Origin: Mizuhopecten yessoensis
Taxonomy: Eukaryota
DNA: 64,000 nt
Reading direction: 5' to 3'
NCBI RefSeq assembly: GCF_002113885.1
Contig: NW_018408917.1
Location: 1,137,390-1,201,389 of the forward strand
Made by a program: the position numbers and the translations under genes. Numbering within the stretch: the stretch's first letter is position 1; the number at the start of each line of letters is the position of its first letter. The notes under the pieces were generated by a model. It had not been told where the DNA came from. It did no database searches and saw nothing but the letters and a program-made list of their open reading frames with translations. Shown one piece after another: positions 55,390 through 64,000 of the stretch.

Positions 55390-58300
55390 ATAAACGTGTC
55401 GTACTGAGGAAGTTATGGGAACAACAAGATGCTTCCTTCAAAGGAATGATGTTAAACTCGAGAGCACCAGAACTCCACCAGCTGGATACCTTGGAAATAA
55501 TGTCCTATCTTCCCAACTTACAAGGACTGAAAGCAGTTGAACTTGGAGCAGGAATCGGGTAAGTCTACGTGCCATGATTGGTTGGTTTAAGTTGATAAGG
55601 TTTAACATTTTATTAAGAGCTAAGTTAATTTACCTGTGTAATGCATGCATGTACGTGTGCCGGTGTACCACCGGAGACAGGGTATGTTGGAGTTAATGAC
55701 TACTTGTAAATAAACGCGGATCTCATGCCGACTTTTAGAGCGCTACTTCATCGAAATACCATCCCGATGAAACACAACACAATATTCTACATATGATACT
55801 GACAGCTACATGTCTTCAATTTTATTTAGAACTTAACAACTGCATTATTATCACACAAAGTGAAATACATCGATGATGAAAGTGCATTTCTGTTTTGTTA
55901 TTTTTTTTTACAGATCGTTCTTTTCTTGTTTTCAATCGAAAGAGGTTATATATAAAATCATTTCACAGACGTTTTACAGGGCATCTTGCGCAGAGAGCTA
56001 AACACGTACTGGCAGTAGACTTTGTGGCCAAGTTCATAGAGAAAAACAGAGAAGTAAACGGTGTCTACAGAAATATAGACTACGTTGTCGATGATGTTAT
56101 GAACATCAATCTGGAGCCAAACAGCGTTGGGTTCGTCTTCACCAATTGGCTCTTTATGTACCTTGACGACGAGGCATCAACACGACTACTCCACGGCATG
56201 CTGACATGGTTACCTTCCGATGGATATGTCTTCGTTAGAGAATCATGCCTATACGGTTCAGGTAGATATCACGACTCAGACAGACCTCATTGTTGACATT
56301 ATATTGACATTTAATTTGAACTAATTTAAGGATACTTTTGTAGAAGGGGGGGGGTGGGGGGTAATACGTGTATGCCACCAACAGAAAAGTAAAAGTATTT
56401 ATTAAGTTACTTCTCTTCCATTAGCATATAAGTCACAAAATCTTTTTATGAATATAGTTACCTATTTTTCCATATTTTATTACATACAGTGTATCTATGT
56501 TTATAGGATATCGCTTCCCGTTTTATATACAAATTACCAAGATAACGGTCCGCCGACGAGCATATGGACAAATTATGATTATAATTGAAAGCTATAAATT
56601 GGTAAACTTTTTAATTATTAATATACACGACATAAATGTGCTTCCTTTTCATTTCTATTTTGCATAAACCATATATATGTATAGTTCTTTGTTAACAACT
56701 AAGATAATTAAAGGACGTACATCTATGTGTTTCATGCAAGCGTGTATGATGGAGGCGGTATGGTGTTTCTCTTTCCATTGAAACCATTTTATCAGGCATT
56801 TGTTTGTTTCAGGTGATTTATCATTTAATGAAGACACTACGTTTTACCGGGAGGCGCAACAGTTTGAAGCATTGTTCCGCTCTGTCAATATTTCAGGCGA
56901 CGACAGAACATCTGTTTACCATCTCCGTATAGTAATGTCGAAATCTTTGGACTCTTACTGCAAGGTAAATACGAAGTCAAATAGAAATAAATACATTTTA
57001 ATTTATTATGTCCCCCAAACGGCATATTGTGTTTACGCCGTTTCTTCTTCCGCCGTGAACTTGTCCGACCATTTTCTCGAAAACCGCAAGTCATATCTTG
57101 ATAAAACTTCACATCATTATTAATGCGCATATGTATTTTGTGCTTTCAAGTATTTATTTTCAGATCGTTGCCAAAGCAACCACATGGCACGTAGGCTTCT
57201 GATTGGTCGAAATTTAGATATTGTTTGATTTTGTTGAAAATTGGTATATATGGGTATAAAGGAATGGGAATTCAACCGCATATGTTTCGTTGCCATATTG
57301 TCACACGTAGGCTTTTGAGATGGTCGAAATTTAGATATTGTTTGATTTTGTTGAAAATTGTCATATAGGGGTACTAGGGGACTGCGAACCCAACCGCATA
57401 AGTTTCGTTGCCATAGCAACCACACAGAGGCTTCCGATTGGTCTTAATTTAAAAACTGCTCGATGCTCAAATGTATTATATACATTGTTGGTGTATTATG
57501 TCATTACGATCCTTTTCTGATGCATCTTTGCGACTATGGGGGCAGCTTTGGAGTCTTCTGAAATGGCCCCCATTACAATTAGTACTTGTTGGTTGATAGA
57601 TTGATTTATAAGGTTATTCATCCTAGAACAGCTAAGGTCATATTAGGATGTGTCTTCATGTGTGTTATGTAAGTGTGCATGCATGTATGGTATGTTCGTG
57701 TATTTGCCTACTTTTGATAGCGCGGAACTGACGTCGACTTTATAGTGCTATCTCACTTAAATACCAGGCACCCAACACAGCATTCCGCCCAGTCACGTTA
57801 TACTGACAACGGGTGAACCAGTGTGTCTTTATCAGCAACATATAGGGCTTGAGTAGACTATATTTATTTATATAAAGCAACATATAGGGATTGAGTAGAT
57901 TATAATTATATATATATACATATATTTAAGTCTTGGATATTGAATCTGAGGTTGTATTTTTGTATGGTGTTTGTGTCGTATTTACAATTCAGGTAATTTA
58001 AGGATGTGCGTCTATGTGTGTTATGTGTGTGTGTTAATGTTGTTGTGCATTTGCCTCCTTGAAAGTTTAGCAGGGATTGGAGGACTTTGGTTTGTCTCCG
58101 ACTAGGGATAGCCAAGGGCGGCACTAGAAAACAAGGTTGAGAGAACTCAACCTAAGTTGAGAGAAAATACGATCTAAACAAATTGGAGAGAAAATACGAT
58201 CCAAATGTTGCAATGAGTGCAGCAGATTTGCTTTGGTCACTTCTTTGTCTCAGAGTAGAGGGCACATAAGCCAATCACCATATCTGCAGGGGTTCTCATA

Positions 58301-61219: not shown

Positions 61220-61530
61220 GTGTACATAGTGATAAAGCTTCTGCATTGGATAACAAGTGCAGAGCGGTGCTTGTCATGCTGGACTTGTCAGCTGCATTTG
61301 ACGTCATCGACCATGGCATACTCTATAAACGTCTGGAAAACTCTTATGGAGTGACTGATACCTGAGTGAACGACGACAGTGCTTGCCATCGGATCTGCCA
61401 CCTCACATGACAAAGTACTAGATTTCGGGGTTCCTCAAGGGTCGGTGTTAGGACCACGAAAATATTGTATGTACTCCAAACCGATTGGAGAGATTTGTCG
61501 TCGCCATAGCCTTCGCTATCATTGCTATGC
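61220..61530 (+). mobile_element. L2-group LINE RT fragment running into the assembly gap
   Basis: AVLVMLDLSAAFDVIDH, FGVPQGSVLGP..Y, YHCYA[gap]. Confidence 0.88.
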
Positions 61531-61950
61531 NNNNNNNNNNNNNNNNNNNNNNNNNNNNNNNNNNNNNNNNNNNNNNNNNNNNNNNNNNNNNNNNNNNNNN
61601 NNNNNNNNNNNNNNNNNNNNNNNNNNNNNNNNNNNNNNNNNNNNNNNNNNNNNNNNNNNNNNNNNNNNNNNNNNNNNNNNNNNNNNNNNNNNNNNNNNNN
61701 NNNNNNNNNNNNNNNNNNNNNNNNNNNNNNNNNNNNNNNNNNNNNNNNNNNNNNNNNNNNNNNNNNNNNNNNNNNNNNNNNNNNNNNNNNNNNNNNNNNN
61801 NNNNNNNNNNNNNNNNNNNNNNNNNNNNNNNNNNNNNNNNNNNNNNNNNNNNNNNNNNNNNNNNNNNNNNNNNNNNNNNNNNNNNNNNNNNNNNNNNNNN
61901 NNNNNNNNNNNNNNNNNNNNNNNNNNNNNNNNNNNNNNNNNNNNNNNNNN
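61531..61950. other. Assembly gap (420 N)
   Basis: Direct reading. Confidence 1.
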
Positions 61951-62343
61951 TACGTCATCACTTACCAAGCAATCTCATTGGCTAACCATAAGAGCTCGTG
62001 CTCCCCGACCTATACGAGTACTCCGTACCTATAGGACAAATATTTCCCGCTATTCTACTAACCGCGGGAAATTTAAAGTCCTCTATATACTCATCATATG
62101 TTATAAACAACAAACTCCTTATATGCAGTTAGCTGCTCTGCCTTTAGATTACAAAAGAACGGGACTGATTAATGATTATATGCTAAAACTATACAAAAAA
62201 CCTGGTGTAATCATAGTAAAAAAAAACACAAAAAAACTCGTACTTAAACAAATACTCACAAACCTGACTGTTACCTAACTTGTACGAGCCTAACTACTCA
62301 GTGTACAAGTACATAATATGCAATAGATATTAGCCTCATATAC

Positions 62344-63285
62344 CTACAAGCCCAACTGCTGGGTAACCTGCAATCTATGCTGAAGCGAATCGGCCACATA
62401 GCCATCCTTAGCAACATCGCTTCTCCATCTCCCATGCCTCTTCCAGCACCTTTCGTTTACATTACTATTTGCCGCTTCTGTAGCGCCACCTGCCCTCAGA
62501 GAATGTAACCCTAAATTCAAACCACTACCTACCTCCTGCAACCTTTTGACAACACATTCTCTTGCCCTCGTATAACTTAATGGTTTCTGCTTACCTATCT
62601 GCTTACACCCGGCCTTTCCACGGACTAATGGTTTGAACAAATAATCATTTGAACTTACCGTTGCTCCAGACAAATCCATAAATTTTTCCAGCATCAAATA
62701 AGGACATGCTGATGTTTTACCTCTTGCGATGACTACCTCATTCCCTAGCCTGTACTGATCGGTTTTAGATTTTCTAATCATTAGCTTTAAGCACGACCCG
62801 TGAAACGATACATCCTCACATCTTAACTCGCTCAACTCATTGTACCTTAGAAAACCAGCAAAACACAGAACAATCATCGCCAAATCTCTCACCACAGTAA
62901 TGTCCCTAGAGTCTTTATGGCTATCGCATAATTTGATAAGCATATCAGCCGATACGCAGTCCTTCTTTATCCTGGGTGCCCGTACTTGTCGTTTTGCGGC
63001 CTCCAACATGTTTCTTACAAAACCATTCTCCGTAGGATCGTCGAAAGCGTTAATAGAATGAGCCCACTTAATTCCGTACACAGCCGATGAAACAACACTG
63101 TATGAACCACCCACATCCAAAATGTGTGTCAAGTACAGCGCCACCTGTATGGGCTGAGCTGGAAGTGAACATCCTCCGTCCTGCTTTATGAAATCCTCCC
63201 ACTTTTTGAAAGCCCTGTAATATTTTACCACCGTATTGTCGCTCCTCGAGTTTAAAATGTAGCCCGCCATTCTCTTAGCCAACAT
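62344..63285 (-). CDS. Tyrosine recombinase of a DIRS-type element (313 aa)
   Basis: N-terminal SAM-like core-binding region (T..KY..AF..W..F); catalytic set FLRYNEL (R), RKSKTDQ (K), HSLRAGG (HxxR), HGRW, GYV (Y) all present. Confidence 0.93.
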   Translation of the reverse strand: MLAKRMAGYILNSRSDNTVVKYYRAFKKWEDFIKQDGGCSLPAQPIQVALYLTHILDVGGSYSVVSSAVYGIKWAHSINAFDDPTENGFVRNMLEAAKRQVRAPRIKKDCVSADMLIKLCDSHKDSRDITVVRDLAMIVLCFAGFLRYNELSELRCEDVSFHGSCLKLMIRKSKTDQYRLGNEVVIARGKTSACPYLMLEKFMDLSGATVSSNDYLFKPLVRGKAGCKQIGKQKPLSYTRARECVVKRLQEVGSGLNLGLHSLRAGGATEAANSNVNERCWKRHGRWRSDVAKDGYVADSLQHRLQVTQQLGL

Positions 63286-63329
63286 GCTTGCCCGAGCCGT
63301 TTCCTGCCCTGTACGCCGTATTTCTTCGT

Positions 63330-64000
63330 CTATGTTTGAGAGTAGCCCAACACCTTATTTGGGCCTTTCTGCATACAGTCTATCCTCCAATGACCGGGCT
63401 TCCCACACGCAAAACATGTTCCAGGACGTCTGGTCGTGCCTGTCGTCGTCGTCGCCTCTGCTGTCACAGGCTGGCTCTGTGTATGTGTCTTCGCGGGGGC
63501 GCCATAGGGAAAATATCTCCTTTGACGTGCAGCTCTCTGATTTTTCATTTTCCGTTGAGCCCGTGCTTCCGCTCTCGAAATCCGTTTCTCATCCTCGGAA
63601 TCCTCCGCCAAAGCATTCGTCTCGTACTCCTCTACTACTTTCCATCCCGTTTCAGAGGAGTCGGCTAACCTAATTAACTTCTGTCTATGTTTCAAAATGT
63701 CCATACCCTCGGCAATTTTCGTGCTGGCCCTCTCCCTGTATACGTTGTGTGACGGGTTTTCCTGCAACGCAGACTGTGCCTCCTGTAACTTGTGTTCTAT
63801 CTTTGCATTTACTTTGAACTGTTCCTCGTTTCCTTTCTTCTTAAATTGGTACGGCGATATTTCCGACATTTTAGATAATTGAACGTCGGAAATAGCTCTC
63901 TGGGTTTCGTTAATTTCTTGCTTAAATGATTCCAGCTTGGACGTCATAATCTCTTCTAATTTATCTAACATATCACTCTGTGAAAACGTGCGCTGGCCCG
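63330..64000 (-). CDS. Gag-like protein of a DIRS-type element (frame open to the window edge; 213 aa from M63971)
   Basis: FKKKGNEEQFKVN, RQKLIRLADSSETGWKVVEEY..LAEDSEDEKRI, zinc knuckle CFACGKPGHWRIDC (CX2CX4HX4C). Confidence 0.88.
   Translation of the reverse strand, partial: GQRTFSQSDMLDKLEEIMTSKLESFKQEINETQRAISDVQLSKMSEISPYQFKKKGNEEQFKVNAKIEHKLQEAQSALQENPSHNVYRERASTKIAEGMDILKHRQKLIRLADSSETGWKVVEEYETNALAEDSEDEKRISRAEARAQRKMKNQRAARQRRYFPYGAPAKTHTQSQPVTAEATTTTGTTRRPGTCFACGKPGHWRIDCMQKGPNKVLGYSQT

Follow-up and report, generated by a model that had tools for sequence, protein, structure and literature searches.

The window (64,000 nucleotides of the Mizuhopecten yessoensis assembly GCF_002113885.1, contig NW_018408917.1) contains near its end, on the minus strand, a copy of a tyrosine recombinase (YR) retrotransposon in which gag is joined directly to the YR frame. 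Judged from its sequence, this copy is probably a retro-copy of a spliced RNA, from an element with a likely programme of three RNAs: one unspliced, one spliced from a non-GT donor at the end of gag, and one spliced from a donor in mid-gag. Three genomic copies, from three families, each lack exactly the stretch from one of two donors to one acceptor. What the locus reveals is a variant expression scheme, new within a known group of elements.

The window copy and its full-length siblings

The first-pass annotation had placed the gag stop at 63330 and the opening of the YR frame at 63354, after a TAA and with a first ATG at 63285, and had described both frames as intact, with all YR catalytic residues present and no reverse transcriptase (RT) or RNase H between them. 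All of these points hold. The gag frame ends with TAG at 63332-63330 and its ATG lies at window-equivalent position 64025, 25 nt past the window end; the whole ORF has 231 aa, made up of 224 aa of Gag with a CCHC knuckle (Pfam zf-CCHC, E 1.3e-5) and a 7-aa tail from exon 2. The YR frame (Phage_integrase, E 7.4e-8) opens after TAA at 63357-63355, its first ATG (63285) is Met24, followed by Met29, and its catalytic set is complete (R170, K197, H284-x-x-R287, H307/W310, Y319). For this contig, databases list a 308-aa protein that begins at Met29. The features are as follows (here and below, a slash within a motif marks the cut).

63330..64000, minus strand: gag ORF, in-window part (ORF scan and Pfam)
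~29-220 nt past the window end: repeat A1 and exact 5' end of the element (sibling comparison)
62344..63354, minus strand: YR frame, 336 aa, catalytic residues intact
63348..63360, minus strand, cut between 63354 and 63353: junction of the end-of-gag non-GT donor with the YR acceptor; RT, RNase H and methylase gone
63701..63710, minus strand, cut between 63707 and 63706: mid-gag canonical donor GAGG/GTATGG, phase 1, unused in the window copy; in copies L109 and L100 the corresponding site abuts the YR acceptor
62078..62147, minus strand: repeat B1, 96-99% match to B2 of copies L031, L032, L033 and L036
61951..62077, minus strand: repeat A2, interrupted by an assembly gap (repeat comparison)
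61531..61950: assembly gap, 420 N, expected to contain the remaining A2, a spacer and B2
61370..61530, plus strand: flanking LINE-type RT fragment; its C-terminal part resumes on the same strand past the element 5' end

Split direct repeats, which had been anticipated, were found in the window copy as A1, B1 and A2. A1 has the same 5' boundary as in L031, L033 and L036 and matches A2 at 97%, and the B1-A2 joint and exact 5' end are identical in layout to those of full-length copies. RT and RNase H could have been sitting just upstream of gag, out of view; past 64000 there is only the gag start and A1. Both flanks are parts of one plus-strand LINE-type RT, which we take to be L2/CR1, and the element sits inside this older LINE. 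The 5' boundary shared with full-length siblings and the single LINE on both sides thus indicate a normal element insertion with no RT upstream. The annotation had also considered a domesticated gag-recombinase gene pair. The frames are intact and an annotated protein is on record, but the copy is very young, keeps the element repeats and exact element ends, and is nested in the older LINE, with no divergence in which selection could show; domestication is scarcely credible here.

Repeat A (window 61951-62010) contains motifs that we take to be CCAAT-like and TGACGT-like, and the full repeat A of the window family has two canonical donor-like sites, potential competitors for splicing. At window 55880-57123, short plus-strand frames resemble gene exons, presumably those of a SAM-dependent methyltransferase.

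A DNA search of the same genome with the window copy, in which the best 40 of 114 candidates were scored, gave four siblings (96-100% identical) whose gag match ends at the window junction. The parent layout is seen in L031, where one 884-aa ORF encoding Gag-RT-RNase H-methylase (RVT_1, RNase H-like and Dam-like domains) is followed by the YR ORF, which lacks a fixed start codon, inside split direct repeats A1-B1-A2-B2 (A ~190 bp and B ~72 bp in L031 and L033). The Dam match in L031 (PF05869, E 6.5e-6) has 26.4 bits, below the cut-off of 28.1, and is also precomputed in relatives. The window copy lacks 2,011 nt compared with L032 and 2,114 nt compared with L031. The piece excised relative to L032 has AT..AG ends with a 2-nt (AG) overlap; it begins with ATAAGT and ends with TTTTGTCATTTCAG, a T-rich tract followed by CAG. 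The donor side, AAG/ATAAGT, is the U1 consensus with A at +1, and the acceptor, TTTCAG, lies at the YR start.

The joint had been likened to an exon-exon junction, and it does unite two sites that are conserved across families; an end-to-end loss between two such sites is far beyond chance. The loss is bounded by a donor (AT) and an acceptor (YAG with a T-rich tract) and the element ends are kept, as in a spliced retro-copy. Thus, the earlier idea of a retro-copied spliced subgenomic RNA is supported in substance, but not in its prediction of GT..AG ends, as the ends are AT..AG and the donor is AT in 4/4 siblings. These features make it likely that the window copy arose by re-insertion of the spliced RNA that would encode free Gag.

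The window locus is a single, one-off copy rather than a member of a set. An exact search of one assembly with the donor-side 17-mer, which gives a lower bound, returned six matches (five family copies and one unrelated), and the window junction is present in just 1/5 of the family copies. The copy is also young, as had been supposed: on the gag side its nearest sibling, L034, shows 2 differences in 833 nt. The annotation had favoured a non-autonomous family that packages and integrates itself and makes YR by re-initiation or a -1 shift. Both frames are indeed intact, the YR motifs are complete, unlike those of L031, L032 and L033, which each have one motif bearing a substitution, and the 308-aa protein from Met29 could be read as a re-initiation product. 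However, intact frames are expected at <1% divergence, the copy is single, and 2/14 families have no Met for re-initiation (see below), so that such a family is highly improbable. For YR, a splice from the mid-gag donor, as recorded in two other copies, is more likely than re-initiation or a shift, and the acceptor needed for that splice is lost in the window copy. The companion claim, that RT would be needed in trans, is supported.

Two other copies show different rearrangements. L036 (G000:C5386:95500-100500) is a solo remnant with only repeat A, spacer and repeat B, as expected from recombination of A1 with A2. L033 (G000:C5494) has a 928-nt deletion with non-splice-like ends, which puts gag-RT-RNase H-methylase and the YR C-terminus into a single 960-aa frame.

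The probable non-GT donor at the end of gag

The donor region was collected in 53 rows with a knuckle, of which 48 were scored after leaving out four with N and the window row, and the site was sought within 120 nt. The donor matrix ignores +1, and a score of at least 9.9 defined a strong site. A strong U1-type site is present at the gag end in 35/48 copies, compared with 0/48 upstream control windows, and is absent in 13/48; since copies and families share ancestry, these counts are not independent and overstate the support. At +1, the 35 strong sites have A (29), T (4), C (1) or G (1), and the lone G row ties with a second site and also has an A site. The distance from knuckle to site ranges from ~20 to 80 nt, and in the distant families L104, L110, L125 and L153 gag has its own stop, with a non-G U1 site just after it. 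The persistence of the site beyond the gag stop and the variable distance thus indicate that a DNA motif is conserved and not a peptide. In proteins from bivalves, sea urchins and other sources, read by eye, K-[IL]-S follows the knuckle in 22/31, and six more have U1-compatible variants. Close to the gag start of L104 and L110 there is another non-G site, whose phase matches that of their own YR acceptor.

The end-of-gag donor is in phase 0. Joined to the acceptor, it would therefore end Gag at a conserved stop, as is seen in the window copy, the one genomic copy with the non-GT splice. The direct parent of this copy is not among the siblings, so its +1 base is one that we infer. This leaves room for a mutant parent with G at +1, in which case AAG/HTAAGT (H = A, T or C) would normally bind U1 without being cut, for example blocking early polyadenylation, and free Gag would be made by other means. 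In the plant element EVD, too, early termination is blocked by U1 (PMC5580714, available text), and AT donors rank lower than GC and TT donors in human reporters (PMC6280755, available text). However, A is found at +1 in 4/4 siblings, the nearest of which is nearly identical to the window copy (2/833 nt), and the gag-frame stop after the acceptor, kept in 38/38 copies, would be useless unless a phase-0 splice occurs. An uncut site with a mutant parent is thus unlikely.

Alternatively, the main product at the end of gag could arise from a cut at the GT four bases downstream, in frame with YR, giving a full Gag-YR fusion with the window junction as a by-product. A phase-1 GT follows the end-of-gag site in 15/15 family representatives, in 14 of them behind AAG, and cutting at +5 has been reported for non-canonical sites (PMC6280755, available text). 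However, the sequence after this GT does not resemble a donor (scores -3.4 to 3.1), the pattern of conservation matches the upstream register, and none of 98 loci has such a junction. Section 6 of the same source describes no +5 use for TT sites, and human sites of the form ..G TTAAGT that have another GT at +5/+6, like the present site, are cut at +1 with weak use. A downstream cut as the main event is accordingly very unlikely, and cutting at +1 of the non-GT donor is preferred. In the available text of PMC6280755, non-canonical 5' splice sites rank as GC > TT > AT > GA > GG > CT, and AT, TT and CT donors are all used in human reporters. Most of the sites described there arose by mutation or are minor sites of human genes, whereas in the present elements the non-G base is conserved across families.

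Other origins of the unusual donor were rejected. U12-type (AT-AC) introns have an ATATCC donor and an AC acceptor; the ends here are ATAAGT..CAG, which is a U1-type site. RNA editing of the +1 A was set aside because T and C are also found at +1. Slippage from a +5 splice was rejected because slippage of the ATAAG repeat removes five bases, not four. In L087, L095 and L092, canonical GT sites lie 50-70 nt farther downstream and are potential competitors.

The mid-gag donor and the YR acceptor

A scan of aligned gag codons found a phase-1 GT site in mid-gag, where E-G meets M or I. The Gly codon at this position is GGT in 34 and GGC in four of 38 rows, with no GGA or GGG (47 rows, 9 without Gly); among Gly codons in RT and YR, 223/516 are GGA or GGG. 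The donor was predicted from this codon bias beforehand, and a gap scan then showed its use in two copies, from two families other than that of the window: L109 (G000:C5514:311000-315500; 2,602 nt gone) and L100 (G000:C4497:115600-123200; 3,267 nt gone). In both, the donor is joined in frame to the YR acceptor, the missing piece has GT..AG ends, and the terminal repeats are kept. The scan of 98 loci gave 40 gap rows of at least 300 nt, many of them partner insertions or flank repeats. Only three of these gaps, in the window copy, L100 and L109, stop at the acceptor; the closest of the others is 54 nt off.

These data also bear on a random internal deletion or an assembly error at the window junction. 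Internal deletions are common in these families and the junction has a 2-nt overlap. However, each end coincides with a conserved splice signal, as in L100 and L109, and none of the remaining 37 gap rows has an end at the acceptor; for a mis-assembly, the nearest N gap is 1.4 kb off and both flanks belong to one LINE. Either accident is extremely improbable.

DNA searches with five other families (best 40 candidates each) and 40 further loci gave no spliced copies beyond L100 and L109. Protein searches for more loci scored the best 120 of 490 and the best 150 of 254 candidates. Neither a mid-gag nor an end-of-gag junction was seen among database proteins examined from 39 matches plus the best 120 of 1,595. 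Among indexed sequencing runs, none from RNA was listed with a match. Four raw RNA runs contributed 6, 5, 5 and 9 reads on L031, and these 25 reads, too few for a test of splicing, include no joints and none at the donor. Two further candidate donors were discarded, one in Mytilus models (at NPLTVA-G), which is not conserved, and a phase-1 GT column in RT (aa 407, 9/14), whose use no copy supports. In one family (L090, L091, L114, L115) the mid-gag site is GC instead of GT, a possible GC-AG intron, and L090 and L114 (C2688, C2573) share an internal break from query position 1323 to 2217, possibly marking a small deleted subfamily.

The acceptor, YAG at the same place and in the same phase, is present in 38/42 loci whose YR match reaches the first residues, and the window copy is among the exceptions. 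Beyond the acceptor, every one of the 38 YAG copies runs into a stop in the gag frame: 31 do so at codon 2 and seven at codon 8. Across 14 family representatives all three stop codons occur (TAG, TAA and TGA), at codon 2 in 11 and codon 8 in three; 88/189 such codon pairs give a stop in a lenient background, and thus 11/14 at codon 2 is modest evidence. The third frame stops as early in 3/14 representatives. YR codons 4-28 precede the usual Met and evolve under constraint (pN 0.39 vs pS 0.71, seven pairs), and in 2/14 families there is no Met in the first 62 YR residues. Thus, the YR start should come from upstream. In YR proteins of other animals, S, T or A precedes the Gly of the G-[LIV]-G motif in 28/33 (motif in range in 33 of 120). 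The RefSeq gene models P0001, P0090 and P0164 use the same acceptor, but with other donors inside RT, and other splices, from RT-internal or nearby canonical sites, may exist.

Proposed expression programme

From the junctions and the conservation of their sites we infer the following RNAs and proteins, together with a purpose for the non-G base. The unspliced RNA would serve as genome and encode Gag-RT-RNase H-methylase. Splicing from the end-of-gag donor, AAG/HTAAGT, to the acceptor would give Gag with a stop 1 or 7 residues on, and hence free Gag. Splicing from the mid-gag GT donor to the same acceptor would fuse ~106 Gag residues in frame to YR, as Gag(1-106)-YR. The non-G base at +1 would keep the end-of-gag splice inefficient, so that full-length RNA survives. 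Both spliced RNAs would retain the terminal A and B repeats and could occasionally be copied and integrated by RT and YR in trans. In the window copy the pyrimidine tract of the acceptor is lost, and so Gag may still be made and YR at most in shortened form (from Met24 or Met29); this copy is likely a dead end.

With somewhat less confidence, the scheme may be extended to a PAT-like clade of marine invertebrates, in which the ratio of Gag, Pol and recombinase would be set by two donors and one acceptor, the U1-perfect Gag donor would be held non-G (AT, TT, CT) by selection as a dial, and the retro-copies would be fossils of both spliced mRNAs. Spliced L1 RNA is reportedly the source of the human genomic copies known as SpIREs; L1 belongs to the non-LTR elements, whereas the present copies appear to record the working mRNAs of the element.

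The scheme addresses two questions: how a recombinase ORF that lacks a start codon is expressed in YR retrotransposons, and by what route free Gag comes from a gag-pol fusion in which no protease domain was detected; no answer to either was found in the literature examined. Exact junctions are given for both the free-Gag and the YR splice. It would also provide a natural case of AT, TT and CT 5' splice sites as a conserved state, useful for splice-site biology, and gene predictors restricted to GT or GC donors mis-model these elements. RT-less copies of this kind are to be read as spliced products and not as new element types.

Classification, known systems and relatives elsewhere

By its split direct repeats, Gag knuckle, same-strand YR and methylase after RNase H, the window element fits a PAT-like YR retrotransposon. 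The Ngaro label raised earlier does not suit it, as Ngaro elements have no methyltransferase domain and a Dam-like domain is present in L031, pointing to the PAT group. Dirs1-like elements have inverted terminal repeats and an internal complementary region; the repeats within the present element are direct only. The Pat1-like group has a methylase, a Gag knuckle and split direct repeats, and the methylase sets it apart from Ngaro (PMC4157794, available text). Echinoderm Pat1-like elements (PAT group, order DIRS) share with the present clade the A1-B1A2-B2 repeats, Gag zinc knuckle, methylase and same-strand YR. However, in the present clade Gag and RT form one ORF, and the available portion of that source does not mention splicing for Gag or YR, non-GT donors or spliced copies.

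The closest parallel in expression is the Ty1/Copia element EVD of Arabidopsis (PMC5580714, available text), which also has one gag-pol ORF and, with U1 in a central role, relies on splicing for an RNA that encodes Gag alone and for Gag in excess. In EVD the splice goes around the protease, with an early end, whereas the present elements remove the whole of pol, use a donor with non-G at +1, and have an acceptor that also starts the recombinase. For copying in trans, the parallel is DIRS-1, whose RT acts in trans: RT and probably other proteins work on RT-less RNA with intact ends (PMC7192593, available text). Since the spliced RNAs of the present elements would keep the A and B repeats, they could be copied in the same way. 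Unlike the present copies, the DIRS-1 constructs were engineered deletions of an inverted-repeat element, and natural splicing is not mentioned in the text available. No report of spliced expression or non-GT donors in DIRS/PAT elements was found in a search that covered subscription literature thinly, nor do the available portions of PMC9341512, PMC9940879 and PMC6681497 contain any.

Outside this genome, a non-G site was found in 1/6 loci with a gag-RT interval, and a GT site in one; the non-G site is thus limited to a clade. Viral contigs gave no relatives, and metagenome loci of related elements are mostly partial. Several bacterial and archaeal MAG contigs (L132-L139) carry animal-type retrotransposons of this kind, likely through host contamination, and most of these have a YAG acceptor near the YR start.
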